From an uncultured Planctomycetota bacterium (GTDB taxonomy: Bacteria > Planctomycetota > Planctomycetia > Isosphaerales > Isosphaeraceae): a stretch of 64,000 bases of DNA. Below the pieces are notes generated by a model, which made no database searches, had not been told where the DNA came from, and saw only the letters and a program-made list of their open reading frames with translations. A program made the position numbers and the translations under genes. Within the stretch, counting starts at the first letter, position 1. Every line of letters starts with the position of its first letter. The stretch covers positions 1 to 64,000 of the forward strand of contig CAWGMQ010000002.1 in assembly GCA_963823665.1 (NCBI GenBank), written 5' to 3'. Positions 8,092 to 37,604 of this stretch are shown piece by piece.

Positions 8092-11000
8092 TCAAGGCCT
8101 GCGTGCCGCGGTGAATCGCGATGACACTGACTCATGCTTCGCCCGGTCTGCCGAGGCGCGGCGCTCGTGAGGGGCACGGGAGTCCCATATCCGAACAGTG
8201 TAGTCTCCTGAGCCGGAGACCAGCACCGTGCCGTCGGGGCTGAACACCACGGAGTGGACGTACGCTGTGTGTCCGCGGAGCTCGGCCACCTCGTCGAAGG
8301 TGTCGGTGTCCCAGAGATGGACCATGTTGTCGCCGCAGCCCGTGGCCAGCCGCGAGCCGTCGGCGCTGAACGCCGTCGCGTACACGATGCCATGATGCTT
8401 GAACACGGCGAGACTTGAATACGTCCCGGCGTCCCACAGCCGGGCCGTCATGTCTTCGCACGCCGTGGCAATCTTGCGGCCATCGGGGCTGAAGGCTACG
8501 CGGTAAACTGTCTTGCCGTGGCCCCGTAAGACCCGAAGAACCGCCCGGCGCCCGACATCCCAGATCCGGACCGATCCGTCGACGTGGGCGGAGACGAGTC
8601 GTGATCCGTCGCGATTGAAGGCGACATCGGTCGCGGGAGGGCCGGATGGCGCCAGGTCGACGTCGGCGTTACCTCCCGAGGGGGCGAACAGGCGAACCGA
8701 GCCATTTTGCCCCCCGGTCGATGCCGCGAGGTCCCGGCCGGGCGAAAAGGCGACCCGTTGCTCGGTGAACTCTTTGCCCGTCAAATCTCGATATGCCGTC
8801 GCACGGGCAGTTGCCAGGTCCCAGGTGCAAAGGCGGTTGGGCCGGCACGCCGAGACGAGCTGCCGGCCATCAGGATGGAACGCCGCGAAGGTGACGACTT
8901 CACTCGTGTGCCGCAACACCCCCATCGACTGGCGTCGTGCCGGGTCCCAGAGCCGGACCGTGCCATCCCACGCCGCCGAGGCGACAGCCGCGCCTGAGGG
9001 GCTGAACGCAACGTCGTAAACGAAGCTCGCATGGCGGCCCAGTACGCCTTGCTTCTTGACCGATTCGATATCCCAGAGGTGGACCAAACCGTCGGAATCG
9101 ACGCTTCCCAGCACCGCACCATCCGGATGCGAGACGGTGAACTCGTGGACACGCGCCTGGCCTCGAAACACACCGATCAGCTCTCGATCCTGCACGTCCC
9201 ACAACCGGAACGTGCTGTCCAATGAAGCCGAGATGATACTTTGGCCGTCGGGGAGGAAGAATGCGCCAATCACCCGGTCGGAGTGCCCGCGCAGGGTGCC
9301 GACCGGCTGGCCGGTCAGACCGTCCCAGAGCCGCAAAGTCTGGTCGTGAGAGGCCGACACGATGCGATGCCCGTCCGGGCTGAACTCCACGTGGCTGATC
9401 GTATTGATGTGTCCTTCCATCGACGCGAGTGCACGACCCGTGGCCAGGTCCCAGATCCACACGCGGTTCTGCGGATAGTCAGTGCCCGCTGCGAGCCGCG
9501 TTCCATCGGGACTGAACGCGATCGCGAGTACCTGGGCATTGCTGCAGACCAGTGGAGCGAGCTCCTCACCCGTCGCGGTGTTCCACAACTGAACCACGCC
9601 CACGCGGCCAACGGCGAAGCTCTTTCCGTCGGGGCTGAGTCTGGTGACCCGGGTCGCTTTCACGCCGGCCAAGCTGCGGACGGTCGCGCCTCGGGCCAGG
9701 TCCCAGACACGGAGATCTCCGTCGGTGGACTGGGTCACGAGCCGCGAGCCATCGTCACTCAATTCCAACTTGACGACGGGCTGGAAGTGGTCGCGAAGCA
9801 ACTCGAGCGGTGCGCCACTTGCCGCGTCCCAGAGGCGCACGGTGCCGTCGGCCGATGACGATGCGATTCGCTTGCCGTTTTGGCTCCAGGCGATGCGCAG
9901 GATCTTGCCCTCGTGGCCGGAGAGCACGGCAACCTCGCGGCCGGCCACCAGATCGTGGAGATGGAGCGAGGGCTCGCCCTCGTCGGCATAGACGACCTGG
10001 CGGCAATCGGGGCTCAGAGCGACCAGTCCGGCCGGCGCGTTCCCAGGCCGGAAGACGGCACGGGAGTTGTCGAGCTGGCCGATCAGATACCGCCACTCCC
10101 AGTTGCAGTACTCCGTCGGCGTCGATTCGAGCAGCCGGCGGGCCGTTTCCGTGTGATTCAGCTCCAGGGCGGTTGCGGCGGCCGTGATGTCGGCCCGATA
10201 GAGGGCCCGGCGCGATTCGATGCTGCTCTGCTGCGCCCGCAGCCAGAGCGCCGTGAGGGAAGCGAGCGCCAGGATGATTACGACCACCAGCGACGTCGCG
10301 AGGGCGGCCAGACGGGGTTGGCGGCGGGCCCATTTGACCAATCGCTCCGAGAGCCGGGGAGGACGCGCCAGGATCGGTTCATCGGTCAGGAAGCGGCGGA
10401 GGTCTTCTCCCAGGGCCGAGGCGGTGAGATAGCGCGCTTTCGGCTCCCGCTCGATTGCTTTCAAGACGATGGTGTCAAGGTCGCGTGGCACGTTCGGCTT
10501 GATGCGTCGCGGCGCGACCGGCGAATCCGACGCGGCGGCGCGCAGCACGGCCGCCGGACTCTCGCCCCGGAATGGCGGCTGGCCGGTCAGGAGCTGGTAA
10601 AGGATCACTCCGAGTGCGTAGACGTCGACTGCCGGGCCCACCTGCGCCGGGTCGCCGTCGGCCTGCTCGGGAGCCATGTACTCGGGTGTGCCCACGGCGA
10701 AGCCCGTCTTCGTGAGTCCGGGATGGTCCTGGAGGGTGCGCGCCAGACCAAAGTCGGTGATCTTGAAAGTCAGACCGGCGACAAGTCCGGGCTTGCTCGT
10801 AGCGGCCAGTGTGCTCGGCGGGGCGCCCTCGTCGTCGGGCTGCACCAGGATGTTGGCGGGCTTGAGATCGCGATGGATCACTCCTTGACGATGGGCGGCG
10901 TCAATGGCCAGGGCGAGCGTGCCGATCAGCCTCGCCGCCTCCTGGGCCGACCAAGGTGTGCCGTCGAGCCGCTGGGCCAGTGTTCCACCGCTAACCCACT

Positions 11001-11598
11001 CCATCGAGATATACGGGCGATCCCCCAACTGGCCGACTTCGTGGACCTGGACGATGTTGACGTGCTTCACCCGGGCCGCCAGCTCGGCCTCGCGCTGGAA
11101 GCGCACCTGCTCTGATCTTGAGGCGAACTCGCCAGCCAAAACCATCTTGAGCGCCACCAGGCGATTCAGGCCCCGGTGGCGGGCCTTGTACACGACTCCC
11201 ATGCCACCACGCCCAACTTCGGCGATGATTTCGTAGGCGCCGACCTGCCAGGCCGCCGGTATTTCCATGGGCTCGAAGCCCCGCGGCATGGCACCCGAAG
11301 GCTCGGATCGGCGCGGCCCGCCAAACGTCGAGAACTCCCGCCAACGACCCCGTCTCAAGGCGCGAACCGCCGGCTCGCGATCAGAGCCCCCCTCGCGACT
11401 CGTAGGTTCCGCCGCGACCGCACTTCGGAGCCGGCCGGTCAGCCCGTCGGACGCCGCGAAACGCTCGAGTGCGGCGCAACAGCGCGTGCACTCGTTCAAG
11501 TGCGCCGCGATCTGCTCCTGTTTCGATTGGACCATCAATCCAAGCGAGAATGCATGCAGATCCTCGTCGATGGGATGTTCGGGATGTGGCACGTCCAT
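8092..11598 (-). CDS. Hanks-type Ser/Thr protein kinase with N-terminal zf-HC2-like motif, one hydrophobic segment and C-terminal WD40 repeats
   Basis: HLNECTRC; GRGGMGVVY, VALK, HRDLKPANIL, DFGLA, GTPEYMAPE; hydrophobic LVVVIILALASLTALWL; many GH...WD repeats. Confidence 0.95.
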   Translation of the reverse strand: MDVPHPEHPIDEDLHAFSLGLMVQSKQEQIAAHLNECTRCCAALERFAASDGLTGRLRSAVAAEPTSREGGSDREPAVRALRRGRWREFSTFGGPRRSEPSGAMPRGFEPMEIPAAWQVGAYEIIAEVGRGGMGVVYKARHRGLNRLVALKMVLAGEFASRSEQVRFQREAELAARVKHVNIVQVHEVGQLGDRPYISMEWVSGGTLAQRLDGTPWSAQEAARLIGTLALAIDAAHRQGVIHRDLKPANILVQPDDEGAPPSTLAATSKPGLVAGLTFKITDFGLARTLQDHPGLTKTGFAVGTPEYMAPEQADGDPAQVGPAVDVYALGVILYQLLTGQPPFRGESPAAVLRAAASDSPVAPRRIKPNVPRDLDTIVLKAIEREPKARYLTASALGEDLRRFLTDEPILARPPRLSERLVKWARRQPRLAALATSLVVVIILALASLTALWLRAQQSSIESRRALYRADITAAATALELNHTETARRLLESTPTEYCNWEWRYLIGQLDNSRAVFRPGNAPAGLVALSPDCRQVVYADEGEPSLHLHDLVAGREVAVLSGHEGKILRIAWSQNGKRIASSSADGTVRLWDAASGAPLELLRDHFQPVVKLELSDDGSRLVTQSTDGDLRVWDLARGATVRSLAGVKATRVTRLSPDGKSFAVGRVGVVQLWNTATGEELAPLVCSNAQVLAIAFSPDGTRLAAGTDYPQNRVWIWDLATGRALASMEGHINTISHVEFSPDGHRIVSASHDQTLRLWDGLTGQPVGTLRGHSDRVIGAFFLPDGQSIISASLDSTFRLWDVQDRELIGVFRGQARVHEFTVSHPDGAVLGSVDSDGLVHLWDIESVKKQGVLGRHASFVYDVAFSPSGAAVASAAWDGTVRLWDPARRQSMGVLRHTSEVVTFAAFHPDGRQLVSACRPNRLCTWDLATARATAYRDLTGKEFTEQRVAFSPGRDLAASTGGQNGSVRLFAPSGGNADVDLAPSGPPATDVAFNRDGSRLVSAHVDGSVRIWDVGRRAVLRVLRGHGKTVYRVAFSPDGRKIATACEDMTARLWDAGTYSSLAVFKHHGIVYATAFSADGSRLATGCGDNMVHLWDTDTFDEVAELRGHTAYVHSVVFSPDGTVLVSGSGDYTVRIWDSRAPHERRASADRAKHESVSSRFTAARRP

Positions 11599-11651
11599 CG
11601 CGTGACCTCGCCCTCGCGGAAACCCCGGGGAACCAGTTTCGCTGATTATTT

Positions 11652-11679
11652 GATCGCGATCGCTTTGGCGATCCTTACA
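11652..11679 (-). promoter_or_regulatory. Weak copy of the island motif upstream of the kinase (TGTAAG-N16-GCGATC)
   Basis: First box exact, second box degenerate; 81 nt upstream of the kinase ATG. Confidence 0.35.
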
Positions 11680-11696
11680 CGATTTGCGTGGGACAT

Positions 11697-12278
11697 TCAG
11701 TCGATCAATCCTTCGGCCTCTTCACGGATGCGCTTCATGACGCGTGACTTGGCGACATAAACGGCCCCGACGCTCATATCCAGCTCAGCCGCGACTTGGG
11801 CGGCGCCGGCGTTTTCGAGGGTAATTCGGCAGAAGGCCCGGAAGGTTTTCACCTCGAATTCGTGCTCGACCAGGTCGAGAAGGCAGCGCAGGACATATCG
11901 GTCGTGTTCCTCGTCCCAGTGGCGGTTGAGCGGGCTATCGGGATCGGCAACCTGGCTGAGGACTTCGCTGACGCTGCTACCGCCGGTGAGCGGCGCGTGC
12001 GGGTCCCGGGCGCACCAGTAGTCGGTCAAGCGATGCGAGGCTATGGTGCGAAGCCACGCCCGGAAGGCACCCGGGCGCCCGGAATGCTCGAACGACCGCA
12101 GGGATTTGACGACCGAAACCAGAATCTCCTGAGCCACGTCGTCGCGATCGGCTTCAGCCAGGTTTTGCTGCCTGAGCCAGTTCATTAGGAACGGGTGATA
12201 CAGGTCGGTGAGGTCTTTCCACGACGCCTCGTCCCCTGCCTGCGCACGGATCAACAGGCTTTGTCGGGTCTCGGCCAT
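11697..12278 (-). CDS. ECF-subfamily sigma-70 factor, kinase-associated planctomycete type
   Basis: ETRQSLL..AGD..SW..L..LY, DDVAQE, FRAWLRTIA (sigma2); AQVAAELDMSVGAVYVAKSRVMKRIR (sigma4); directly upstream of the kinase gene. Confidence 0.92.
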   Translation of the reverse strand: MAETRQSLLIRAQAGDEASWKDLTDLYHPFLMNWLRQQNLAEADRDDVAQEILVSVVKSLRSFEHSGRPGAFRAWLRTIASHRLTDYWCARDPHAPLTGGSSVSEVLSQVADPDSPLNRHWDEEHDRYVLRCLLDLVEHEFEVKTFRAFCRITLENAGAAQVAAELDMSVGAVYVAKSRVMKRIREEAEGLID

Positions 12279-12494
12279 TGCGGCCCCTCTACCAAGTCGG
12301 CCCGGCCGCACAGCGGTCAGGCACGGCGAGCTCGTCTCGACAAACCAGACATGGACGCGGCCCGTCTACATGGGTCTGACTGATTCTAGCACGTGCGGGT
12401 TTGACCTGCATCACGTCCGACCATGAACATGCCGGGTACGGACTGCACCGCGGCGCGAGTCGTCCGTGGCTCGGGCATGCAGTTGGTAATCGGG

Positions 12495-13571
12495 TCAGAA
12501 GTACCACGTGTCGCCGTCGACCCTGGTCAAGACGACGCAGCGCGTTGCCACTCGCCAGAGAGCGCAGAAAACAGGCGTGTCGTCATATCGATAGAGGTGT
12601 GGAAAGGCAGCCGCAATCGCGCGAGTCGCGTGCACTGCATTGTAGTGAGGGATCCGCGGAAACAGATGGTGCACCGCGTGCGTGCTGCCAATGTTGCAGT
12701 GGAGATAGTCGAGCAATCGACCGTACGGACGATCGACAGTCTGAAATGCCCCCAGTACTGACGTCCAATCCTTGGAACCAAAGTGTGGTACGTCGACATC
12801 GGTGTGGTGCAACCATGTATAAGCAACAACCCACGCGTTGACGACGAGAAAGGGGCCTCCGTAAACGAGCGCCGGTGCCATCCAGCCGTCTCGACTTGCC
12901 CAGCACGCTAGAAGGATGATCGTACAGGCGATCCCTCCGCTCGAGACGATGGACTTCCATTTGCCGGGGGACAACCGGGTTGCGAACGGCCAGAGATGGC
13001 TTGTAGCGCGCCTGTGAGGGGTCGATAGACCACCGATCGTTACATAGGTAATCCATCCGATCAGAAAGTAGGCCGAAATCACCAGCGGCCCGAACGCCCA
13101 TCCGAGAATGCGCTGGAGCCGGGCCCAAGCGCGCCCGTTGGCGGTCTCGATCGTTGGCGGTACGTGGGTTTCATCATCGAAAATGTGATTCGTACGCGCG
13201 TGATGCCACGCGTGACTTTTCCGAAAAGTAAAATAGGGTACCAACAGGGCAGAGTGAAGAATGAAACCGACCGCCGTCTCAAGACGCTTTCGCCGTGAGA
13301 AGGCGTGGTGACCACACTCGTGCGCCAGAACCCATAGTCCATTCGCAATCGTTCCGTTGACGGCCGCGTAAGCGATCCAGAACGGTGCAAATGCGCACGC
13401 CTTGGGGACCGCGAGCTGCGCAGCCACTCCCAGGCCGATTGTCATCATCAGCAAAGAAGCCAGTCGCCTAAACGCGACGCGTTCGTTCGTTTCGAAGCAA
13501 TGCGCAGGTATGACCGCCATCAGCTCACGCCGATCCGGAATGCGCATCTCGTTCGTCAATGTGCCGCTCAT
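12495..13571 (-). CDS. Membrane fatty acid desaturase, delta-12/omega-6 (FAD2)-like
   Basis: Three His boxes HECGH, HAWHH, HAVHH; IPAHCFE, HSALLVPYF, TVDRPYG and IPHYNA motifs; AGGAG RBS before ATG 13571. Confidence 0.9.
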   Translation of the reverse strand: MSGTLTNEMRIPDRRELMAVIPAHCFETNERVAFRRLASLLMMTIGLGVAAQLAVPKACAFAPFWIAYAAVNGTIANGLWVLAHECGHHAFSRRKRLETAVGFILHSALLVPYFTFRKSHAWHHARTNHIFDDETHVPPTIETANGRAWARLQRILGWAFGPLVISAYFLIGWITYVTIGGLSTPHRRATSHLWPFATRLSPGKWKSIVSSGGIACTIILLACWASRDGWMAPALVYGGPFLVVNAWVVAYTWLHHTDVDVPHFGSKDWTSVLGAFQTVDRPYGRLLDYLHCNIGSTHAVHHLFPRIPHYNAVHATRAIAAAFPHLYRYDDTPVFCALWRVATRCVVLTRVDGDTWYF

Positions 13572-13627
13572 GGATGTCTCCTGATCGATTAGATGGCTCA
13601 GTCTCCCGGCGAGCGTGATCATCAGCC

Positions 13628-13669
13628 GCCTTGAGATCAGGAAGCGTGTCGCGACGACCGAAGCTTACA
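13628..13669 (-). promoter_or_regulatory. Island motif copy A (TGTAAG-N16-ACGCTT-N7-TCAAGGC), upstream of the desaturase
   Basis: Read directly on the minus strand; putative ECF -35/-10. Confidence 0.75.
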
Positions 13670-13772
13670 GAAACCTCCAAGATTCCTGGGTACGACTTCG
13701 ACCCAACGGCCGGGCAGCCCTCGCCGTCGTGCAGGCCGACGGACCGATTCATTCGTTCTACTTTCGGGATGC

Positions 13773-13814
13773 TGCAAGGTTCTGGCCTTGACCGACGCTT
13801 TCATCTCTCAAGGC
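13773..13814 (+). promoter_or_regulatory. Island motif copy B (TGCAAG-N16-ACGCTT-N7-TCAAGGC), upstream of the PAQR/ABC operon
   Basis: Divergent from copy A, same spacing. Confidence 0.75.
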
Positions 13815-13903
13815 GGTCGAGCATCGGCGTGATGATCACCGAGGTGGTTCTCTCACAGCTCGACGCGGCCCAGACATCGCTGAATCCACAGGAGAGCTAA
13901 CCC

Positions 13904-14674
13904 ATGATTTCCCAAGCCGAAGTCGCTGAGTTGCCCGGCTTCGCAGCCGTGCTTCTGAACCGCGGAGCCGGCAGTTCTCGTCTCGGATGGACTGTCGACG
14001 GGGGGCTCGGAGCCCGCCGCCGCCGCGACGGGGAGTTCGCCCAGGATGAGATCGAAGAACTGCTCAACATCGCCACCCACGCCTTGGGACTTGTGCTGAG
14101 CCTGATCGGCCTGTATGGCCTTTCGATCATCGCTCGCATGGGCACGGCGCCCGGGACCGCGGCCGGGTGCCTCGCATATGGGCTGTCGCTGGTCTTCCTC
14201 TACGCGGCCTCGACCCTCTACCACGCGCGGCCGGCAGGACGTGGCAAGCGGGTGATGCTTCTATTCGATTATGTCGGTATTTACCTCCTGATCGCCGGAA
14301 CTTATACGCCCATCGTCTTGATCAGTCTGGGCGGCCAGTTGGGCTGGTCGCTCTTGGCGGCGGTCTGGGGGATCGCCGCCGTGGGGACGGGCTTCAAGGT
14401 CGGCCGGTTCCATCGCTTTGAAAAGGATTCCTCCATGCCCTACCTGGCGATGGGAGGGCTCTGGCTGGTCGCCGTCAGGGAGTTGATAGCTGTGGTGCCC
14501 ACAGCCGAATTCGCGTGGGTGGTGGCCGGCATGGCTTTTTACGTCGTCGGCTTCTGTTTCTACGCGCTGCCCGAGCGACGGTTCTTCCACGCCGTTTGGC
14601 ACGTCTTTGTGCTCGCCGGCAGCATCTCTCACTATCGCGCCGTCGTCGGCTGTGTGAGCACTCTGGTTGGTTGA
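13904..14674 (+). CDS. Hemolysin III / PAQR family membrane protein (TrhA-like)
   Basis: EELLNIATH, ASTLYH, DYVGIYLLIAGTYTP, FFHAVWHVFVLAGS..HY; about 7 TM. Confidence 0.92.
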   Translation: MISQAEVAELPGFAAVLLNRGAGSSRLGWTVDGGLGARRRRDGEFAQDEIEELLNIATHALGLVLSLIGLYGLSIIARMGTAPGTAAGCLAYGLSLVFLYAASTLYHARPAGRGKRVMLLFDYVGIYLLIAGTYTPIVLISLGGQLGWSLLAAVWGIAAVGTGFKVGRFHRFEKDSSMPYLAMGGLWLVAVRELIAVVPTAEFAWVVAGMAFYVVGFCFYALPERRFFHAVWHVFVLAGSISHYRAVVGCVSTLVG

Positions 14675-14738
14675 GCTCCGTTCTTGGTGACGACAAGGTT
14701 GGTGCCTGTAGTCCGTAGCGAGAGACGGGGGTAAGACG

Positions 14739-15866
14739 ATGGTGGACCTGGCGTGGAAGATGGCATGGCATGACAAGGTGCGGTTCTTGATCACCGTTTC
14801 GGGCGTGGGTTTCGCGGTGGCGCTGGTGCTCGTGCAAGTCGGGTTGTTCCTGGGGGTGCTGGGCAACGCGTCGGTGACGATCGAGCAGGCGGCGGCCGAC
14901 CTCTGGATCACCGCGCGGAACGCTCCCAATGTCGACCTGGCGAGCACTTTCCCCGAAACGTACGTCCAGCGCGTGCGGTCAGTCCCGGGCGTGGCACGCG
15001 CCGACAACCTGATCGTGTGGGTCATGCGGGTCACCCAGCCCAGCGGCGCTACCGAGGACGCCGTCGCTTACGCTCTCGAAGACTTCGGACGGTGGGGCCT
15101 GCCGTGGTCGACCCTGGAGGGCGACCCCGCCGACCTGAAGCGGGGCAAGTTCGTGATGATCGACGAGTCGGCCCGCAAGAGGTTTGGCGACGTCACGGTG
15201 GGCGACTACCGCGAGTTTTATGGCCAGCGGCTCAAGGTCATCGGCCTGACCAGCGGCGCCCTGTCGTTCACCACGATGCCGATCGCGTTTATCGACTATC
15301 GGCTCGCGCAGTCGATGATGCGCCAGGAGCTGCGCGGGCGAGCGACCTACATCCTCGTGAAACTCGAGCCAGGCACCGACGTGGACCGCGTGCGCCTTGA
15401 GCTGCGCCGCCGCCTGCCGCACAACGATGTCTGGACGCGTGACGAGTGGGCCGCCCGCTCTCGGGCCTACTGGACCGACACGACCGGGCTCGGCCTGAAC
15501 ATGGTGACGACCGTCGTGCTCGGTGCCGTCGTCGGTGTGATTGTGGTGGCCCAGACGCTCTACACCTCCACGGTGGAACATCTGAGCGAGTTTGCGATCG
15601 TCAAGGCCATGGGGGGAACAAATGCCGACGTGCTCGGAGTTGTGGCCAAGCAAGCCGCGCTCGCCGCACTGATCGGCTACGCCCTGGGCGCGGCACTCAC
15701 CTGCGCCGCCCGCCCGGTCGTGACGGCATTCGACTTGAAGCTGGATGTCAGTCCGGCATTTGCCGCGCTGGTGTTTCTGGGCACGGTGGGGCTGTGCCTC
15801 GCCGCGTCGACGGTGTCGTTCCGGCGAGTTGCGACCCTCGACCCGGCTGTCGTCTTCCGGGGATGA
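14739..15866 (+). CDS. ABC transporter permease, FtsX/MacB (DevC-like) family
   Basis: N-terminal TM, periplasmic ADLWI domain, EFAIVKAMG, three C-terminal TMs, ends LDPAVVFRG. Confidence 0.9.
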   Translation: MVDLAWKMAWHDKVRFLITVSGVGFAVALVLVQVGLFLGVLGNASVTIEQAAADLWITARNAPNVDLASTFPETYVQRVRSVPGVARADNLIVWVMRVTQPSGATEDAVAYALEDFGRWGLPWSTLEGDPADLKRGKFVMIDESARKRFGDVTVGDYREFYGQRLKVIGLTSGALSFTTMPIAFIDYRLAQSMMRQELRGRATYILVKLEPGTDVDRVRLELRRRLPHNDVWTRDEWAARSRAYWTDTTGLGLNMVTTVVLGAVVGVIVVAQTLYTSTVEHLSEFAIVKAMGGTNADVLGVVAKQAALAALIGYALGAALTCAARPVVTAFDLKLDVSPAFAALVFLGTVGLCLAASTVSFRRVATLDPAVVFRG

Positions 15867-15917
15867 GTGCCATGCCGGCTGAAAGTTTTTTCCCGCCAGG
15901 TTTCGGAGGGCGAGTCG

Positions 15918-16589
15918 ATGACCGTGTTGAATGCGCGTGACGTGACCAAGGTTTATCGCGAAGGCTCTTCGAGCGTGGCCGTGCTCAAAGGTGCCTCGCT
16001 GACGCTGGACCGCGGCGAGATCGTGGCACTCGAGGGACCTTCGGGATCCGGAAAGACGACGTTCTTGACGATTCTCGGCTGCATGCTCACCCCGTGCTCG
16101 GGCCGGCTCACGCTCGAGGGGCGTGATGTCGACCCCACGCGCCCCGACCTTCTCCCGGCGCTCCGTCGGGCGTCGATCGGGTTTGTGTTCCAGCAATTTC
16201 ATCTCTTCCCCGCCCTGACGGCGGCGGAGAACGTCGAGTACGTCTTGAACCTCAAAGGTGTGAAGGGGCTCGCGGCCCGGCACGAGGCGGCGCGTCTGCT
16301 CGGCAAGGTCGGTCTATCCGAGCGGGCCGCGTTTCTGCCGCGCGACCTCTCCGGCGGCCAGAAGCAGCGCGTGGCCATCGCCCGCGCGCTGGCGGGCCGG
16401 GCCCCGATCATCCTGGCCGATGAGCCGACGGCCAATCTCGACCACCATACCGGCTCGCAGGTCCTGGACCTGTTTCAAGGGTTGGCCCGGCGCGAGCAAC
16501 GGGCGCTCCTGGTTGTGACGCATGACCCGCGGGTGCGCACGATCGCCGACCGTGTCGTCCACATCCGCGACGGCGCGATTTGCAGCTAA
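15918..16589 (+). CDS. ABC transporter ATP-binding protein (LolD/MacB/DevA-like)
   Basis: [39 protein letters not shown]. Confidence 0.95.
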
Positions 16590-16630
16590 ACGCGATCCCT
16601 CTGGATTTCACCTGACGAGGAGACCGGCTC

Positions 16631-17588
16631 ATGACCGCTTTTCTGTTTTCCCGATTCTGGATGGGCACGTGCATGATCATCGTGGCGGCCGGGCTCGTTG
16701 CGAGCCCGAGCCTGACTGCGAAATTGTGGCCGCACCGTCTTTCATCGGACCACCTCCCAGCGCGAGACTCCGCCCCGGGCGTGCCACCCGATTCGGGGCC
16801 GGCCCGGGTCGTCGCCGAAGGCTGCGTGGTCGCGTACCCCGGCGCCGAGGTTGTGCTTGGAGCCGAGGCAGGCGGGCGGCTCGTAACGCTCGACGTCGCC
16901 GAAGGCTCGACCGTGCGCAAGGGGCAACTGCTCGCGGCGCTGAGCGCCGACGATCTGCGGGCTTCGCTCGCCGAGGCCGAGGCGAAGGAGGCCGAGGCCG
17001 AGGCCGACATCCGCTACTACGAGCGCGAGACTAGGCGCAACGAGGCGCTGGTCTCCCGCCGGGCCGCGTCCATTCAGGAACTGGATGCGATTCGCCACAG
17101 CCTGGAAACCGCCCGCGCCCGTCTTGCTGTCGCGCAGGCCCAGCGGGCGCGGAGCGGCATTGATCGCCAAGACCCGGATCATCGCCCCGCTCGACGGGGT
17201 GATCACGGCGCGGCACGTCCAGGAAGGCCAGATCGTCAGTGTCGGAGAACCAATCGTGACGATCGCAGATCTGGGCCGGCTGCGCGTCGAAGCCGAGGTC
17301 GATGAGTTTGACATCGCCCGCATCTCGCGCGGCGCCCGTGCCGTCATCACAGCCGAGGGCCACTCCGCAGCGCAGTGGCGCGCCACGGTGGAGCAGATCC
17401 CCGACGTTGTCACCGGCCGCCGCCTTCGGCCCCAGGACCCCGGCCGCCCGATCGATGCTCGCGTGCTCGCCGTGAAGGTCGCCTTCGGCGAGGCGACGCC
17501 CCTGAAGCTCGGCCAAAAGGTCGATGTGGAGTTCGACGCAGCCGGCGAGGGCTCGACAGCCGGAAAGCTCGTGTCCCCCGTTCGTTAG
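16631..17588 (+). CDS. HlyD/membrane-fusion (periplasmic adaptor) protein, frameshifted near 17152
   Basis: ORF 16631 gives V.EGSTVRKGQLLA plus a coiled coil; frame of ORF 17085 continues I.APLDGVI..., EAEVDE, LKLGQKVDV. Confidence 0.85.
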
Positions 17589-17640
17589 AACCGCATCGTG
17601 AATGTGACTTCTGGGCTCCGCCGAGTCGCTCTGAAGCATG

Positions 17641-17683
17641 TGTAAGATTCGAGCTGCAGGCCACGCTTCCTACTCTTGAAGGC
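17641..17683 (+). promoter_or_regulatory. Island motif copy C (TGTAAG-N16-ACGCTT-N8-TGAAGGC), upstream of the second ABC operon
   Basis: Closely similar to copy F over about 55 nt. Confidence 0.75.
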
Positions 17684-17728
17684 TGCTGTCGTTCTCTCTG
17701 CGGCTTGATACACCGAGGTAAGTGAGCG

Positions 17729-18871: not shown

Positions 18872-18898
18872 AGCCGCCTGAGAGGAGTAGAGTGGACG

Positions 18899-24543: not shown

Positions 24544-24578
24544 CCGTTTGAGTCAATCCTGCCGAAGAGGGGCCACCC

Positions 24579-26768: not shown

Positions 26769-26811
26769 TGTAAGGTTCGAGAGCCTCCGCACGCTTCCTA
26801 CTGGTGAAGGC
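26769..26811 (+). promoter_or_regulatory. Island motif copy G upstream of P5
   Basis: TGTAAG-N16-ACGCTT-N8-TGAAGGC, 123 nt before the ATG. Confidence 0.75.
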
Positions 26812-26891
26812 CGCTGTCGTCCTCGCGAACGCCGAGGCCGGCTGGAACAGCCGCGGTTGATCCGAGCTCCCAAACCCAAGACGAGGAACCC

Positions 26892-28134: not shown

Positions 28135-28167
28135 CGGTATCCGCCGGCAAGCTCTTCCGGGTCTTCA

Positions 28168-28836: not shown

Positions 28837-28876
28837 CGGCCGGAATGGTCTGGGCCGGCTTCAGGTTGGAATCATC

Positions 28877-28919
28877 TGTAAGGTTCGAGCGTCAGGCGAC
28901 GCTTTCTTCTCTCGATGGC
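28877..28919 (+). promoter_or_regulatory. Island motif copy H upstream of P7
   Basis: TGTAAG-N16-ACGCTT, 120 nt before the ATG. Confidence 0.75.
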
Positions 28920-28996
28920 TCGGTCGTTCGCGCGGGCTCGCCATCCGCGACGCGGCGACGATCGTTCGCGTATCTCAAACCAAAGACGAGGAAACC

Positions 28997-29953
28997 ATGA
29001 GCAACCGACGCATCCCGCACACGAGCAAACGCGCATTCCACCCGGCGTACGACGACCTGGAGGGGCGGCGACTGATGTCGTCGGCCGCGGTTCCGCGAGG
29101 TCCCGCGCCCGGAGATATTAACGGACCATCCGCGCCGGCCATCGTTGCTTTCAACGACAAGATCTACATGGCCTCAGTGAATGGCTACAGCGGCGTTCCC
29201 TTCGAGATCGAGTCCTCGTCCGACGGCGGCTTGACCTTCGGCAACAAGGTCGACCTCCCTGAGAAGACCGAGTCATCTCCGGCGCTGACCGTCTTCGACG
29301 GACGCCTCTACGTCGCCTGGAGAGGGGACAATAGCGCTCACCAGGTCAACGTCGAGTCGTCATCCAATGGCGTGGACTTCGGCAATAAGGTCGTCTTGCC
29401 TGAAAACACCATCGGCAGTCCGGCGCTGACCGTCTTCGACGGACGGCTCTACGTCGCCTGGACGGGGACCAACCACCAGCTCAACATCGAGTCGTCATCC
29501 AATGGCGTGAACTTCGCCGATAAGGTCACCGCGCCTGAGTCCAGCGATGCCGGTCCGGGGCTGACCGCATTCGACGGAGTCCTCGAGATCGCCTGGGCGG
29601 GGACCGATAAGGATCACCAGCTCAACCTCGAGTCGTCATCCAATGGCGTGAATTTCGGCAATAAGGTCACCCTCCCTGAGAAGAACAGTGCCCCGAAGGC
29701 GGCCGTACAGCCCGCTCCGGCGCTGGCCAGCTTCGACGCACGTCTGTACATCGCCTGGAAGGGGACCGATGGGCGCCTCAACTTCGACTCGTCGGCCAAT
29801 GGCGTGGCCTTCGGCCGCAAGACCCCCTATTTGCAAAGCATCGAAAGTACCGGTCCGGAGCTGGCCGACGTCGGCAGATCACTCGACATGGCGTTGACTA
29901 GTAAGACGAATCCTCACGTCGTCCATGAAGTTGTCACTATCTCTCGCGCTTGA
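28997..29953 (+). CDS. Propeller-repeat paralog P7
   Basis: KRAFHPAYDDLEGRRLMS plus ~6 repeats; highly similar to P3. Confidence 0.88.
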   Translation: MSNRRIPHTSKRAFHPAYDDLEGRRLMSSAAVPRGPAPGDINGPSAPAIVAFNDKIYMASVNGYSGVPFEIESSSDGGLTFGNKVDLPEKTESSPALTVFDGRLYVAWRGDNSAHQVNVESSSNGVDFGNKVVLPENTIGSPALTVFDGRLYVAWTGTNHQLNIESSSNGVNFADKVTAPESSDAGPGLTAFDGVLEIAWAGTDKDHQLNLESSSNGVNFGNKVTLPEKNSAPKAAVQPAPALASFDARLYIAWKGTDGRLNFDSSANGVAFGRKTPYLQSIESTGPELADVGRSLDMALTSKTNPHVVHEVVTISRA

Positions 29954-30011
29954 GGACAAGGTGCTGGAGCGTGCCGTCGTCAAGGTTCTGGAAGCTGTCT
30001 ACGAAGCCGAA
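29949..30011 (+). pseudogene. Second group II intron-type RT remnant
   Basis: LEDKVLERAVVKVLEAVYEAE; shares TGAGGACAAGGTGCT.GAGCGTGCCGTC with 24507-24534. Confidence 0.65.
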
Positions 30012-30421
30012 AGCGTCGTGTTCGCAGGCAAGGGCAAGCACAGGCACGTCGCGGGCTTCCAACTGGATTTCAGCGAGGCACTTGATGCAAAGTGCGCCGG
30101 CGCCGCCGCGAATTACATCCTGAGTCGAACGGTTCACGAGAAAGGGCGGTCGCTGGCGCTTTCGGTGCCCTTCAGGGTCGTTCAAAACGCGGCGGCCGAG
30201 ACCCGTCGAATTGCAGTTGCGACGTCCGACCACTTTTGCCGGCGGAGGGGGAGCTCTTGGTAAACGCGCAGCCGCCCAACGGAATCACAAGTCGCTCGGG
30301 CGAGTATCTCGATGGCGACGATCTGGGCGTTCCGGGTAACGATGCAACCTTCGTCATCGGCCGCGGGGCAGCCAGCATCGTCGCACCCACGATCCACGAG
30401 CCGACGCCAGCCGCACCTTGA
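30012..30421 (+). pseudogene. Remnant of the C-terminal Ig-like domain of a large surface protein
   Basis: FQLDFSEALDA..A..AANYIL..., then a frame change to GELLVNAQPPNGI...LDGD..GVPG.DATFVI; no start. Confidence 0.45.
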
Positions 30422-30459
30422 TCAGAGAAGCATGTTCCCGTCGCGTCGTCATCGTCTCG

Positions 30460-30487
30460 TGTAAGGTCGTAAACCCCGGCCACGCTT
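30460..30487 (+). promoter_or_regulatory. Island motif copy I (TGTAAG-N16-ACGCTT)
   Basis: Exact boxes and spacing; 311 nt upstream of the truncated gene at 30771. Confidence 0.6.
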
Positions 30488-30770
30488 TATATCCCGATGA
30501 GAGACTCCGCACTCCATGAAGTCGAGACGCGGCTGATCGAGTAAGCAAAGATCAATGCAAGCCTGCTGCTGTCCCGGCCGGGCACGCGGCACCGGGTCCG
30601 CGTTTTCGCGCCGCAAACCGCACAACTTAAATCCCGTTGCATGGGCCAAGCGGGCCTGGTGGTACCGCTCCGCGCAGATCGGAGCGCTTTCGGAGCTTCA
30701 GCCAAGGGGCATCCCAGGAATTCTCTGCGTAACACCCACAATTCACGAGCCGAACCGAAGGGAAATCACC

Positions 30771-31043
30771 ATGTTCACGTCGCGTCGTAATCGCCGTGAT
30801 GCCAGGGCCGGCAATTGCAATTCCCGGCGCACACGACGGACCTTTGCGCTGGAGCCCCTGGAGGAACGCGTCGTCCTCTCGCCTACGGTCTACACGGTCA
30901 ACACGAGCGCCGACGGCACGCAGAGCGGCACCCTGCGCTCGGCGATCATCCAGGCCAATGACAATACGAATATTGCCGACGCTCGCCGGTCGCACTCACT
31001 TCCAAGCCAAGGCACCGTTCAATCGGCTGTCCCGAGTGCGTGA
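30771..31043 (+). pseudogene. Truncated paralog of the adhesin N-terminus
   Basis: MFTSRR...LEPLEERVVLSPTVYTVNTSADGTQSGTLRSAIIQAN matches the start of 31246, then similarity is lost. Confidence 0.7.
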
Positions 31044-31142
31044 AGTCATCGCACCACGCTGCCTTAAGTCCGACTCCTGAGACACTCGCGACAAACAATT
31101 TCGTCACAGAATGTTCTTGATTTCAGATTTTCATGCGGACTG

Positions 31143-31170
31143 TGTAAGGTCCGAGAGCCTCGACACGCTC
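31143..31170 (+). promoter_or_regulatory. Island motif copy J (TGTAAG-N16-ACGCTC), upstream of the giant adhesin
   Basis: 103 nt before ATG 31246. Confidence 0.72.
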
Positions 31171-31245
31171 TTTATAACGAGAGCGACCGCTCCACTCGCC
31201 CAAGAATCCACCAACCGAAGTTACGCTCACCCGAAGGAGAGAACG

Positions 31246-34200
31246 ATGTTTGAATCGCGTCGTCAACGCCTTGCCTCCGGCACCACCAGTCGCCGGACCC
31301 AGCGCACGCGCCGGAAGTTCACGGTCGAGGCCTTGGAGGAACGCGTCGTCCTCTCGCCCACGATCTTCACGGTCAACACCAACGTCGACGGCACCGAAAG
31401 CGGCACCCTGCGGTGGGCGATCACCCAGGCCAATAACAATTCGACTACCGCGGGCAGCGTCATCACGTTCGCCGCGGGAGTCGGGGGCGAGACGATCAAC
31501 CTGTCGTCAACGCTGGGCACGCTGGACCTCACTGAGACGGCCGGCCCGGAGCAGATCGAAGGCCCATCCGGCGTCGTGACCGTCAGCGGCGACCTCGCCT
31601 TCGGCGTGTTCGACGTCGCCTCGGGCGTCAAAGCCACGATCCAGGGCCTGAACATCACCGGCGGCAATGCCAGCAACTCTGGTGGTGGAATCGACAACAA
31701 CGGCACGCTGACGATCAACGACTGCTCTGTCACCGACAACTCCGCCTTGATTGGCGGCGGCATCTTTACCGCGGGCGCGCTCACGCTCACGAACAGCACC
31801 GTCTCCGGCAACTCCGCCCGCGCGACTGACGGCGGCATTTTTAGCGAGGGCGACGCTTTGACGCTCACGAACTCCACAGTCTCCGGCAACTCGGCCCGTA
31901 CCAACGCCGGCATTGCGAACGAAGAGGGCGCGCTCACGCTTACCAACTGCACCGTCTCAGCCAACTCGGCCAATTACTCAGGCGGTGGTCTATACAGTGC
32001 GGGAGACACGGCGACACTGACCGACACCATCGTCGCCGGCAATAACGCCGGCAGCGTCGCCAGCGATATCTCCCTTGGGTCGGCCAGCAGTGTCACCGGC
32101 AGCTACAACCTGATTGGCACCGGGGGTTCGGGCGGGATCGCGAACGGAGTGCACGGCAACATCGTCCTGACCGGCTCCGAGACAGCCGGCCTGGCTCCCC
32201 TGGGGAATTACGCCGGGCCGACATATACCATGGCCCTCATGCCCGGCAGCCCCGCCATCGGTACGGGATCGATCGTCAGTGGGATCACGACTGACCAGCG
32301 GGGGGAGATCCGGGGTTCCGTGGTGGATATCGGCGCGGTCCAGGTGAGCCTCGTTGTCGAATCGACGGCGGGGACGGTCAGTGAGGTCCCCAGCTCCTTG
32401 ACCTTGCCCGGCGCCGTCAGCCTGGCCGATACGTATTCTGACTCCGAGATCACCTTCGGCCCGAACGTCTTCGGCACTCCGCAGACCATCACGCTGGCAT
32501 CCGGCACGCTCGACCTGACCAACACCGTCGGGACCACGACAATCACCGGCCCGACGGCCGGCGTGACCATCAGCGGCGGCAACGCGGTCCAGGTGTTCGA
32601 CGTCGCCTCCCAGGTCAACGCCACGATCTCGGGCTTGACCATCACCGAGGGCAATGCCGACGAGGGTGGGGGCCTGTATAACAGCGGCACGGTGACGCTC
32701 AACGACTGCACCATCAGCGGAAACTCCGCTGGCGGCAATGGCGGCGGAGTGTACAACTACGGGAACCGCAGTACCCACTACGGAGCTACGCTGACGCTCA
32801 ACGGCTGCACCATCAGCGGAAACTCCGCAGGGGCGCCGGCGGGGGGGTGTGCAACTACGGCACGGCGACGCTCGACGACTGCACCATCGCCGGAAATTTC
32901 AGCAATCAAGTCGGCGGCGGCGGGGTGAATAACGGCGAGTACGCCACGGCGACGCTCAACGACTGCGCCATCACCGGAAATTCTACGAGCGGCGACGGCG
33001 GCGGTGTGTACGTCAACTTCGGTACGGCGACGCTCACGAACTGCACCATCAGCGGAAACTCCGCGGACGCCGGCGGCGGCGTAGACAACTTTGCCACGGC
33101 GATAATCGACGCCTGCACCATCGAAGCAAACTCCGCTAGCGCGTATGGCGCCGGGCTGGTCAACTTCAGTGGTACGGCGACGCTCACCGACACAATCGTG
33201 GCCGGGAACACTTCGAGTGGGGCCGCCAGCGACATCAGCACCATGGGCGGCACGCTCACCGGCTCGTACGACATGATCGGCACCGGCGGCTCGGGAGAGC
33301 TCTCGAACGGGGTCGACGGCAACATCGTCGGAGTCTCGAATCCGGGCTTGGCCCAACTGGGCAACTACGGCGGGCCGACTCAAACGATCGCGCTCTTGCC
33401 CGGTAGCCCCGCGCTCGCCGCCGGGACGGCGACCGGCGCCCCGGCCACCGATCAGCGCGGCGTGGTCCGTACCAGTGGCGTCGACATCGGCGCCTTCCAG
33501 AGCCAGGGGTTCGTTGTCACGATCACCGGCGGCAACAACCAGGCCGGCATAGTCGGCAGCTCGTTCGCAGATCCCCTCTCCGTGACCGTCACGGCCAATG
33601 ACCCCCAGGAGCCGGTGGCAGCGGGCGTCGTGTCCTTCGCCGCTCCTGCCTCGGGCGCCTCGGCCAGCTTCACTGGCAACCCGGCCGTGATCGGCGCCAC
33701 GGGCTCGGCCTCGGTCAGCGCGACCGCCAACTCCATGGGCGGCACCTACGCCGTGACGGCCTCCACCGGCGCGGGCTCCGCCAGCTTCTCGCTGACCAAC
33801 GTCGCCCAGCCCACGTTCTCAAACCTCGCCTGCGCGACGATCACGTACGGCACCGCCTCGGCGACCTTGGGCGGCACCATCCTGGCCGGCTCGTTCGTCC
33901 CCACGGGCGACGTGAACATCACTGTCGACAACGTCACCGAGCAGGCGACCATCGACGCCAGCGGCGATTTCTCGCTCGCCTTCCCCACCGCAGGGCTGGG
34001 CGTGGCCGGCGCTCCCTACACGATCACCTATGCCTACGCGGGCAACGGCACGTTCCAGCCGGTCACCGACAGCAGCCCGGTGCTCACCGTGACCCAGGCG
34101 ACACCCACACTGGCGGTCACAGGTGTGACGTCGACCTACGACGGCGAATCGCAGCCGGCGAGCTTCACGATCACGGGCGTCAACGGCGAAAACCTGACGA

Positions 34201-37200
34201 GCCTCGTGACGCTCACCTACAATGGCTCACCCAACCTGCCGGTCAATGCGGGCAATTACGCCGTCGTCGCGACCTTCCCGGGCGACACCAATTACGCGGC
34301 GATCAGCAACGCGTCGCAGTCGGTCGTGATCGCCCAGGCGACACCAACCTTGAACGTCACCGGCGTGAAGTCGACCTACGATGGCCAGCCGCAGCCGGCG
34401 AGCTTCACGATCACGGGGGTCAACGGCGATAACCTGACCAGCCTCGTGACGCTCACCTACAACGGCTCGCCCAACCTACCGGTCAATGCGGGCAATTACG
34501 CGGTCGTCGCGACCTTCCCGGGCGACACCAATTACGCGGCGATCAGCAACGCGTCGCAGTCGGTCGTGATCGCCCAGGCGACACCAACCTTGAACGTCAC
34601 CGGCGTGAAGTCGACCTACGATGGCCAGCCGCAGCCGGCGAGCTTCACGATCACGGGGGTCAACGGCGATAACCTGACCAGCCTCGTGACGCTCACCTAC
34701 AACGGCTCGCCCAACCTACCGGTCAATGCCGGCACCTACGCCGTCGACGCCAGCTTCCCCGGCGACAACAATTACGTACCCGTGAGCAACTCGTTGCAGT
34801 CTGTCGTGATCGCCCAGGCCACACCGACCTTAAACCTCACCGGTGTGACGTCGACCTACGACGGCGAGCCGCAACCCGCGAGCTTCACCATCACGGGGGT
34901 CAACGGCGATAACCTGACGAGCCTCGTGACGCTCACCTACAACGGCTCGCCCAACCTACCGGTCAATGCCGGCACCTACGCCGTCGACGCCAGCTTCCCC
35001 GGCGACAACAATTACGTACCCGTGAGCAACTCGTTGCAGTCTGTCGTGATCGCCCAGGCGACACCAACCTTGAACGTCACCGGCGTGAAGTCGACCTACG
35101 ATGGCCAGCCGCAGCCGGCGAGCTTCACGATCACGGGGGTCAACGGCGATAACCTGACCAGCCTCGTGACGCTCACCTACAACGGCTCGCCCAACCTACC
35201 GGTCAATGCGGGCAATTACGCGGTCGTCGCGACCTTCCCGGGCGACACCAATTACGCGGCGATCAGCAACGCGTCGCAGTCGGTCGTGATCGCCCAGGCG
35301 ACACCAACCTTGAACGTCACCGGCGTGAAGTCGACCTACGATGGCCAGCCGCAGCCGGCGAGCTTCACGATCACGGGGGTCAACGGCGATAACCTGACCA
35401 GCCTCGTGACGCTCACCTACAACGGCTCGCCCAACCTACCGGTCAATGCCGGCACCTACGCCGTCGACGCCAGCTTCCCCGGCGACAACAATTACGTACC
35501 CGTGAGCAACTCGTTGCAGTCTGTCGTGATCGCCCAGGCCACACCGACCTTAAACCTCACCGGTGTGACGTCGACCTACGACGGCGAGCCGCAACCCGCG
35601 AGCTTCACCATCACGGGGGTCAACGGCGATAACCTGACGAGCCTCGTGACGCTCACCTACAACGGCTCGCCCAACCTACCGGTCAATGCCGGCACCTACG
35701 CCGTCGACGCCAGCTTCCCCGGCGACAACAATTACGTACCCGTGAGCAACTCGTTGCAGTCTGTCGTGATCGCCCAGGCCACACCGACCTTAAACCTCAC
35801 CGGTGTGACGTCGACCTACGACGGCGAGCCGCAACCCGCGAGCTTCACGATCACGGGGGTCAACGGCGATAACCTGACGAGCCTCGTGACGCTGACGTAT
35901 AACGGCTCGGCCAGCGTGCCGGTTAACGCGGGGACCTATGCGGTCGTTGCCAGCTTCCCCGGCGACACCGACTATGTGCCGGTGAACAACTCGTCGCAGT
36001 CAGTCGTCATCAACGCCTCGGCGACCACGACCACCTTGACATCGTCGTCCAACCCGGTGATTCCCGGCCAATCGGTAACGTTTACGGCGATTGTCTCGCC
36101 GGTCGCGCCCGGTGGCGGAACACCGACCGGCAGCGTGACGTTTCAGTACGGCTCGACCGTGATCGCCACCGTGCCGGTCTCAGCCGTGGGAGGTCAGGTC
36201 GAGGCGAGCGTGACGACAACACTCTCCACATCGGGCTCTTCCCCGATCACGTCCTCCTACGCGAACTCCAACGGCAACTACTCCGGCAGCTCGGCCTCGC
36301 TCAACGAGACGGTCAAGGGCCCCGGCGTTTACGTGTCCGGCACCACGCTTTATGTCGTCGGTGCCAACACGTCCGACTACGCTTCGATCAGCCCGGCCGG
36401 CAGCAAGACCGACGGCAGCACGGGACTGGCCGTTTCGGCGACATTGAACGGGACGTGGAGCTCGCAAACCTTCACCCAGACGTTCACCGCCATCGTCATT
36501 ACGGGCTACGGCGGCAACGACGATTTCCAGCTCGCCTGCTCGCTGGCCTTGCCGACGACGGTGACCGAGGGGAACGGCAATAACTACATCCTGCTCGCCG
36601 GCGGCAACGACACGGTCACACTGGGGACCGGAAGCAACCAGGTCTTCGGCGGCAACGGCAACATGACGATCACCGACTCAGATGCGGCCTGCACGAGCGC
36701 CTACATCCAGCTTGGCAACGGCAACGATGTCATCAACATGGGCGCCGGCAATGACCAGGTCGTGCTGGGCAGCGGTAACAATACCGTCACCACGGGCAAC
36801 GGGAACGACTCGGTGACCACGTCGGGCAGCGGCAATAACACCGTCACCCTGGGCAACGGCAACGAATACGTTTCCACCGGCAACGGCAACGACGTGATCG
36901 CGCTCGGCTCGGGCAACGAGACCATTCTGACGGGCAACGGCAACAAGACGATCACGGCCGGCAACGGCAATGACTACGTGTCGGCCGGAAGCGGGACGGT
37001 CGTCGTCACCCTGGGCAACGGCGCCGATAACGTCCAGGTCGGCAACGGCAGCACCACCATCACGCTGGGCAGCGGCAATGACTACGTCTCCAGCGGCAGC
37101 GGCACCGACGTCGTCACCGCAGCTTCCGGCGCCGACAATGTCCAGGTCGGCGGCGGCAACGACAAAGTCACGCTGGGAGACGGCAACGACTACGTCTCTG

Positions 37201-37604
37201 CAGGTGGCGGCAACGACAATGTGACTGTCGGCAATGGCAACGACAACATCCAGCTCGGCAACGGCTCGGATGTGATCATCGAAGGTAACGGCAACGACTA
37301 CGTGTCGGCCGGCAACGGCGCAGACCTGGTTGTTGCGGGGCTGGGGCAGCACACGGTGCAGCTCGGCAACGGCAACGACCTCCTGATCGACGGCTCGGCC
37401 ACGGTCGTCAACTCCGGCGACTCGTTCCGGCAGATTCTTTCCGACTGGAACTCTAGCTCCTCGGCGTCAGTCGATACGCGGCTGAAGGTCGTCTACAACA
37501 CGTCGCATCCCAGCGTGATGCAGGCCGGCAGTGGCCGAAACTGGTGGTTCTACACCTACTCGAAGGACGTGACCAACAAGAAGCCGACGGACCGGCTGAA
37601 TTGA
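31246..37604 (+). CDS. Giant surface protein/adhesin (~2100 aa): LEERVVLS leader, beta-helix GGG(I/V) repeats, Ig-like domains, 8 MBG-like repeats, Big_3-like domain, RTX-like GNGND repeats; frameshift near 32830-32847
   Basis: ORFs 31111..32928 and 32847..37604 join in a G-rich tract; AAGGAG RBS; TDQRG..R...DIGA motifs; very high T/G/N/S content. Confidence 0.85.
34094..36010 (+). repeat. Eight tandem 240-bp (80-aa) coding repeats containing a 720-bp higher-order duplication
   Basis: CCAGGC(G/C)ACACC recurs at 34094, 34334, 34574, 34814, 35054, 35294, 35534 and 35774. Confidence 0.95.

Follow-up and report, generated by a model that had tools for sequence, protein, structure and literature searches.

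A genomic island of an uncultured planctomycete (family Isosphaeraceae) was analyzed within a 64,000-nucleotide stretch of DNA, referred to here as the window (contig CAWGMQ010000002.1, positions 1 to 64,000). The island carries genes for an extracytoplasmic function (ECF) sigma factor, a Ser/Thr kinase, exporters and surface proteins together with ten copies of a promoter-like motif. We consider this ten-copy, island-confined promoter of ECF type to be real, and judging from its occurrence at related loci it very likely belongs to the clade of ECF62-type sigma factors that includes the island sigma factor. As a whole, the island is probably explained, and we hold this with good though not full confidence, as an ECF62-type promoter module that has grown into a local regulon. 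The proposed promoter would consist of a -35 element TGTAAGG(T), 16-17 nt and a -10 element CGCTT, and would be read by the subclade to which the ECF62-type sigma factor belongs.

The motif TGTAAGG-N15-ACGCTT was found ten times in the window at two or fewer mismatches, and all copies were located inside 13642-31170. The mean expected by chance was 0.54, and none of 100 shuffles reached ten. Every copy faced a downstream ATG, nine at a distance of 61 to 104 nt and one at 284 nt. In the genome of 16.46 Mb, 13 matches with at most one mismatch were obtained, ten of them in the island, and a backwards control gave 11; a wider pattern gave 14 matches compared with 11 in its control. A motif that is common genome-wide was thus rejected, as three matches off the island stand against 11 in the backwards control. 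These three are found at a desaturase paralogue on contig C11 (90%), divergently from the closest sigma factor paralogue (73%) on contig C8, and inside a surface-protein gene. Enrichment throughout the phylum was also rejected: 40 of 401 genomes contained a match, mostly a single one, and controls were similarly frequent as judged by eye from unsummed counts. At 29 of these loci a sigma homologue was absent from the surrounding 1.5 kb, and a kinase was present at one; we therefore treated the matches as chance. Two loci from one genus (L292 in G422, L293 in G407) showed five near-identical motif-like strings with no sigma factor nearby, possibly a repeated element.

An earlier sequence-only reading of this DNA had placed the motif ahead of nearly every transcription unit. 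This holds for the ten oriented copies but not for the sigma gene, which has none directly upstream, nor for a PEP-CTERM gene at 24579 and two propeller units at 20973 and 28168, which lack a motif of their own. Copy A (13642-13669, minus strand) is the candidate promoter of a desaturase gene and may read on into the sigma and kinase genes; since no terminator-like site was found on the minus strand between 12495 and 12278, it could add a positive loop peculiar to the island. Copies B to J are all on the plus strand. Copy B (13773-13800) corresponds to the divergent promoter of the clade and would serve an operon of a PAQR gene and exporter 1, copy C (17641-17668) the operon of exporter 2. Copies D (21837-21864), E (23285-23312), F (25291-25318) and H (28877-28904) precede intact propeller genes starting at ATG 21958, 23406, 25413 and 28997, respectively, copy G (26769-26796) a propeller gene split near 27741, copy I (30460-30487) a stub of 90 aa (ATG 30771), and copy J (31143-31170) the gene of a giant surface protein (ATG 31246). 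A degenerate eleventh copy, K (11652-11679, minus strand), with an intact -35 element and GCGATC as -10 element, lies between the sigma stop and the kinase start. A weak twelfth motif-like site at 37719 (minus strand, TGAAAGG..ACGCGC) is aimed back into the end of the adhesin gene. In a genome of the same genus (G029, 84% complete), a stand-alone orthologue of the desaturase gene (73%; L203:8549, minus strand) has kept the -10 element and spacer of copy A, with TAAAAGG as -35 element. A scan of 7800-27000 for sigma-70 sites gave one site compared with 2.2 expected and was uninformative.

The sigma gene (11697-12278, minus strand) is intact and encodes 193 aa. By Pfam and NCBIfam, the protein has sigma regions 2 and 4 only, with TIGR02937 above its cut-off, and its homologues are titled Planctomycetota. 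It retains DRDD in region 2.2; D44 was near-invariant and D47 invariant in an alignment of 22 rows. Because the genome contains 55 matches to this sigma factor, its adjacency to the motif proves little, and homologous loci were scanned with a -35 box derived solely from the window (TGTAAGGT, one mismatch). The scan covered the divergent strand up to 450 nt upstream of the sigma gene and 200 nt after the sigma stop, at distinct loci with enough flank and with the window excluded. Where the sigma factor was at least 54% identical, the box was located divergently upstream in 22 of 25 loci and between sigma and kinase in 20 of 25; the opposite strand carried it there in 0 of 25. Neither did any of these 25 loci have it upstream on the same strand, where an autoregulated ECF gene would have its site. 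At 45-54% identity the numbers dropped to 1/15 (divergent) and 3/15 (before the kinase) and below 45% to 1/58 and 4/58, with a background of 0.05 and 0.02, respectively, per scanned range. A held-out set comprised 67 metagenome loci, with five duplicates, three loci below 53% and those with short flanks dropped; here, the box was present divergently in 39 of 51 and before the kinase in 33 of 47 loci.

A -10 element was found at 101 of 114 distinct sites, and the spacer from TGTAAG to CG measured 16 or 17 nt at each of these. In a quick maximum-likelihood tree of 83 sigma factors (IQ-TREE), full sites were confined to one clade of 30 rows (SH-aLRT 88), which comprises three subclades (SH-aLRT 98-99) with CGCT, as in the island, CGTT or GAT as -10 element. 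The sole held-out locus of the island subclade with a full sigma gene (L217, 71%) has CGCTT, and in the complete genome G108 the sigma gene is flanked by both TGTAAGG matches. By its position, orientation, restriction to the clade and recurrence in a second genus (see below), we regard it as highly probable that the motif is the promoter of the clade of the island sigma factor, which is in line with the sequence-only reading. The sigma gene itself would be transcribed differently. A candidate extended -10 element of housekeeping type (TGCTAGAAT; 12383-12391, minus strand) lies 104 nt before the sigma ATG, and such an element, searched with a hand-made pattern, preceded the sigma gene in 20 of 26 loci of the clade, often 5-6 nt before the ATG.

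Behind the divergent site, the genes within 3.5 kb were examined at 26 loci with long flanks. At 16 of these an N-terminus of LExRxLL type was encoded, which we take to be a planctomycete export signal, three had DevC-type exporters, and seven gave no pattern match. In a paralogous module (G000:C8 and G029:C1; L036:17283-20000, L082:13827-17415) the divergent promoter is followed by a gene for a STAS anti-sigma-antagonist and then by a DevC-type exporter. At several loci of the CGTT subclade (L096:14584-15804, L098:14945-16195), a DUF4915 gene comes first behind the divergent promoter, followed by a giant surface protein.

The kinase gene (8092-11598, minus strand) encodes, according to Pfam, hydropathy and alignment, an N-terminal zinc finger, a Ser/Thr kinase with all catalytic motifs intact, and WD40 propellers, with a single hydrophobic helix (residues ~430-448, from hydropathy only) between kinase and WD40. 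The zinc finger has the pattern of class I (ZAS) anti-sigma factors, Hx3Cx2C with a His or Cys about 24 residues upstream (H8..H33-x3-C37-x2-C40). These four residues were invariant in 40 homologues, which had partly been picked by the HxxxCxxC pattern, and zf-HC2 was matched by 32 of the 40. Profile matches to the finger were 3HUG_B, DdvA, ChrR and RsiW, with E values from 1e-6 to 0.06; 3HUG_B is presumably RslA. A complex of the sigma factor, kinase residues 1-65 and Zn was modeled with an ipSAE of 0.74 as compared to 0.02 for the best control; contacts agreed between runs by at least 71%, and partner pLDDT was at least 81. In a calibration, 116 of 157 solved pairs and 2 of 215 mismatched pairs attained the ipSAE mark. 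Modeled contacts of the finger were restricted to sigma residues 126-192 in region 4 and covered the -35-reading helix, with none predicted confidently for region 2. On the strength of these models, the zinc finger fairly probably acts as an anti-sigma factor, which runs counter to the earlier assumption that a kinase takes the place of an anti-sigma factor in this system.

The pair of sigma factor and kinase matches ECF62, so that the system is not, as had been thought, without a described counterpart. This assignment rests on description, namely the architecture of a planctomycete sigma factor with its kinase: for ECF62 (Jogler 2012), the supplement of Casas-Pastor 2021 (PMC7826278) lists a planctomycete ECF with a kinase at +1 that has one transmembrane helix, WD40 and an N-terminal zinc finger, all of which were found here. 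The supplement entry calls the predicted ECF62 target promoters 'not conserved' and assigns the regulatory role to the kinase, whereas in the loci studied here a promoter is defined, in divergent or downstream position, and the finger is modeled as an anti-sigma factor. The motif scan of the ECF classification, as its supplement describes, covered 200 bp upstream of the operon; ECF62 sites would be missed by it because they are divergent or downstream. A literature search found no published ECF62 promoter, although Jogler 2012, Wiegand 2020, Iyer 2020 or their supplements might hold one, and the passages on kinase-linked planctomycete ECFs in two reviews (PMC8103513, PMC8999054) name no studied member.

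Other known systems share some features with the island. The supplement of PMC7826278 predicts -35 boxes of a similar kind for ECF120, ECF231 and ECF235. ECF231 of Bacteroidetes and Acidobacteria operates in much the same way as the module, since its entry lists a zinc-finger anti-sigma factor with one transmembrane helix, adhesins and MacB/FtsX permeases nearby, and a promoter with TGTAACCTT at -35 and GTTT in the -10 element; it differs by the lack of a kinase, by periplasmic HEAT instead of WD40 repeats, by its phyla and by a promoter upstream of the ECF operon. The ECF43 pairs EcfP/PknT and EcfK/PknS also combine an ECF with a Hanks-type kinase (PMC8103513, PMC8999054). ECF43 is described in PMC8999054 as lacking the acidic motif of region 2.2 and as activated by phosphorylation there; in the island sigma factor this motif is DRDD, not replaced by Ser/Thr, and the island kinase has an anti-sigma-like zinc-finger domain. 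The finger is similar to the class I anti-sigma factors RslA, ChrR, RsiW and DdvA in its Hx3Cx2C pattern and in helix 1 on region 4, as outlined in PMC7406223, but differs in being fused to a kinase and in that contact of helix 4 with sigma region 2 was not predicted confidently.

A second cassette was identified in a genome of a different genus (G043, 73% complete). It contains in this order the kinase, a K site, the sigma gene (78%), the divergent site, a desaturase gene, exporter 2, a further site, the PAQR gene, exporter 1 and four propeller genes, each with a site; hence six outward copies plus K are present, and the contig ends in a propeller gene. As in the window, the cassette lies at the 3' end of a tRNA gene, here tRNA-Leu(TAA), with the kinase closest to the tRNA. 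At the nucleotide level, the kinase-sigma block is 75% and the PAQR-exporter 1 block 83% identical to the window, exporter 2 reaches 93-95% and one propeller gene 97%; two flanking core pieces show 70-78%. Because identities within the cassette reach up to 97%, block-by-block transfer between genera would be the simplest reading. The desaturase gene of G043 (PF00487, frameshifted) stands behind the divergent promoter and cannot be aligned with that of the window; desaturases therefore appear to have been recruited twice. The copy B leader and the G043 divergent promoter are homologous, and from this comparison the window desaturase together with copy A appears to be an insertion between the sigma gene and the ancestral divergent promoter. 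Close homologues of the propellers were present in 2 of 121 genomes of the family and distant ones in four more; in a search for the rest of the G043 cassette, the adhesin was not closely matched elsewhere.

Several observations weigh against the explanation preferred here. The loci are kin, with two near-identical rows from G046, and the sites are in cis to the sigma gene, so that the counts are inflated by shared descent; moreover, the three subclades amount to no more than two or three independent changes. Nor can the island copies be counted as independent, as A, D, E and F pairwise share 22-28 of 40 bases upstream and C, F and G have 27-29 of 40 in common downstream. In the held-out loci, a same-strand -35 box was seen in 7 of 51 with about 2.5 expected, five of them without a -10 element and two cut by the edge of the scanned range. 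No single residue explains the -10 element, and sigma factors with IVCNR keep CGTT. The zinc finger of the window alone did not match zf-HC2, its homologues had partly been selected by the HxxxCxxC pattern, and the complex model may have passed owing to its likeness to solved anti-sigma complexes. Finally, both membrane fusion protein (MFP) genes and the adhesin gene are frameshifted, so that some of the cargo may have decayed. This last point, together with the many frameshifts in general, the stub behind copy I, the location of five of the ten copies in homologous propeller leaders and the unrelated defense-type cargo at the same tRNA site in G029, would fit decaying cargo that has piled up at a tRNA hotspot, with repeats that simply accompanied the duplicated genes and with no regulon at work. 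We judge this quite improbable: the 15-nt spacers of the copies agree at only 3-12 positions while the boxes are kept, copies B, I and J and the copy at the PAQR gene of G043 stand in unrelated contexts, the same boxes flank sigma homologues throughout the clade, and G043 repeats the gene content. An operator of another transcription factor might share the bipartite structure with fixed spacing. There is hardly any room for this idea, as the motif is non-palindromic, strictly oriented to the downstream gene, spaced as in ECF promoters and tied to the sigma clade, and ORF and Pfam analysis found no other regulator encoded in the island.

Which protein reads the promoter, and how it is controlled, has to be weighed separately. 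The island sigma factor is probably the main reader. It might also have drifted, leaving the clade promoter to be read mainly by the C8 paralogue (73%), or by both, as its region 2.4 has IASHR instead of the IAANR of the subclade and the K site behind its gene has degenerated, while the C8 sigma factor has the consensus IAANR and, at the divergent promoter of its locus, the boxes of copy E, and one target, the C11 desaturase gene, lies off the island. This seems rather unlikely to us, since the cassette of G043 has its own sigma gene (78%) but no second member of the subclade among matches with E<=1e-60 (in a genome 73% complete), the island sigma and kinase genes are intact, and region 4.2 is the same in both sigma factors. 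The paralogue with the same boxes and the copy A at the C11 desaturase gene do speak against the self-contained regulon that had been proposed; apparently, the regulon, though local, is not closed off. As to control, the main rival of sequestration is direct phosphorylation in the style of EcfP/PknT, with the finger only docking or structural. The intact catalytic motifs and the lack of confident contacts outside sigma 126-192, with none to region 2, are compatible with it, and ECF62 is named among the groups proposed to be phosphorylated (PMC7826278, PMC8999054). Nevertheless, we give it a modest chance only and favor sequestration and release, because the finger is modeled on region 4, where it would cover the -35-reading helix, and because the sigma factor keeps the acidic DRDD, in contrast to EcfP, described in PMC8999054 as having no such motif.

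The gene content of the island was found by ORF, Pfam and NCBIfam analysis as it had been claimed, including seven propeller units. A FAD2-like fatty-acid desaturase with three His boxes (12495-13571, minus strand; Pfam) is encoded between the sigma gene and the ancestral divergent promoter; all further cargo is on the plus strand. The PAQR/TrhA membrane protein (13904-14674) matched NF011669 with 193 bits (cut-off 80). The role in membrane-lipid remodeling that had been assigned to it is doubtful, as E. coli TrhA belongs to the unsaturated fatty-acid regulon and is reported in PMC9017321 to affect membrane energetics, not fluidity. Two sets of a MacB_PCD+FtsX permease, an ATPase and an MFP follow, for which DevC/DevA of DevBCA-type exporters were the best models with scores below the cut-offs: a DevC-like permease, ATPase and MFP (14739-17588; MFP frameshifted near 17145-17156) and a second DevC-like permease with an ATPase-MFP (17729-20976; MFP part in two frames). 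Operons of PAQR and DevC-type exporter were also observed in G043 and G046 (L208:9347-12961, L209:7876-11480) with no such sigma gene near and no motif; this block also exists outside the regulon.

Seven propeller units (nine tblastn-type matches) were detected, four of them intact. The intact units and their promoter copies span 21837-22917 (D), 23285-24371 (E), 25291-26366 (F) and 28877-29953 (H), as obtained by motif scan and propeller search; the split unit with copy G spans 26769-28017. The unit at 20973-21639 is frameshifted near its start and is a near-duplicate of unit F minus part of the repeats, and that at 28168-28836 is partial with a C-terminal hydrophobic and basic tail. A PEP-CTERM protein (24579-25109; Pfam) is encoded in between. 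A short stretch occurs at 24507 and again at 29952-30010; the second copy presumably resembles part of a reverse transcriptase from a group II intron, although Pfam gave no match. The model of propeller F (pLDDT 93.7) lists 23 strands and fits a six-bladed beta-propeller. Its best fold matches were PLL/PHL lectins (TM 0.61-0.67, at most 20% identical), with sialidases similar, yet by strand count it has six blades and not the seven of PLL/PHL. Pfam and NCBIfam held no family for the propellers, with no match to Pfam PLL, and an Atlas search gave PLL-like and BNR leads with low recognition. Taken with the fold, the propellers may be secreted, sugar-binding proteins with a lectin or adhesion role. 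Copy I and its stub (30460-31043), which resembles the N-terminus of the adhesin, are followed by copy J and the giant surface protein (31143-37604). This adhesin (31246-37604, in two frames with a change near 32847 at a G run) contains a choice-of-anchor Q domain, eight MBG_3, Big_3_5 and RTX-type calcium repeats; an identity as RTX toxin or EhxA was rejected, as the scores stayed far under the cut-offs of these models (68 of 1000 and 50 of 2000 bits), leaving calcium-binding repeats only.

The proposal of a tRNA island was borne out. At the left end, ARAGORN and Rfam identified tRNA-Ser(GGA) (7804-7893, plus strand), the sole match in a scan for structured RNAs with Rfam, and 63 bp of its 3' part recur with 100% identity at the right end (37909-37971, plus strand). 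The interior has a GC content of 63.7% as compared to 59.3% and 60.7% on the outer sides. At the same tRNA-Ser, G029 contains about 32 kb of other cargo (L201-L202, G029:C1 276700-308800) with RAMP, DUF499, SNF2-helicase and Cas3-like genes, and no propeller match was found in that genome. An integrase was found neither among the island ORFs nor as a PF00589 match on contig C2, serine recombinases not having been searched by family; a second copy of 37600-37910, the right end of the island, was not found in the genome. A further tRNA-Ser 3' repeat (43341-43407, 97%) delimits a shorter segment (37972-43407) that contains a HEAT-repeat gene and encodes an Ig-repeat surface protein of 1350 aa, both present in G029 at about 90% identity. 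Frameshifts affect both MFP genes, two of the seven propeller units and the adhesin gene. Low-cover reads from four DNA runs spanned one of these sites only, and one short-read contig lacked one base at 27741; since the other sites are unspanned, the remaining frameshifts may reflect either assembly error or decay.

We infer the following mechanism, including transcription from the sites, their firing by the sigma factor, the binding of the anti-sigma domain and the mode of release. In the basic module, present in dozens of planctomycete loci, a promoter of housekeeping type would supply the sigma factor; of two ECF promoters, one faces outward and would drive neighboring surface-protein or exporter genes, and the other would drive the partner kinase, resulting in feedback. 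The partner would be a membrane receptor with periplasmic WD40, cytoplasmic kinase and N-terminal zinc-finger anti-sigma domain, the finger most likely holding the sigma factor by region 4 until a signal perceived on the WD40 side sets it free via kinase activity. In the island, a local regulon of ten promoters would have arisen by copying of promoter blocks of about 100 bp along with duplicated propeller genes and also ahead of captured genes, the desaturase and the second exporter. The cassette would have moved between genera and would sit at tRNA 3' ends without an integrase of its own.

The consensus, the reason why it was overlooked, the natural -10 variants and the reporter-ready sites make ECF62 targets testable, as is the question of whether phosphorylation or a fused anti-sigma factor accounts for the action of an ECF62 kinase. 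Tentatively, and with somewhat less than even confidence, the partners of ECF62 sigma factors may be seen as three-in-one receptors that unite a WD40 sensor, a Ser/Thr kinase and a zinc-finger anti-sigma factor, and the sigma factor may drive its own inhibitor and an outward gene but not itself. Such a module could serve as a plug-in switch for surface genes, in which -10 variants insulate paralogues among dozens of ECFs. In this island, it may have grown by promoter copying into a ten-promoter adhesion and envelope program that passed from genus to genus at tRNA ends, with no integrase, and acquired unrelated desaturases on two occasions. The island would also illustrate how a local regulon is assembled through the copying of promoter blocks.

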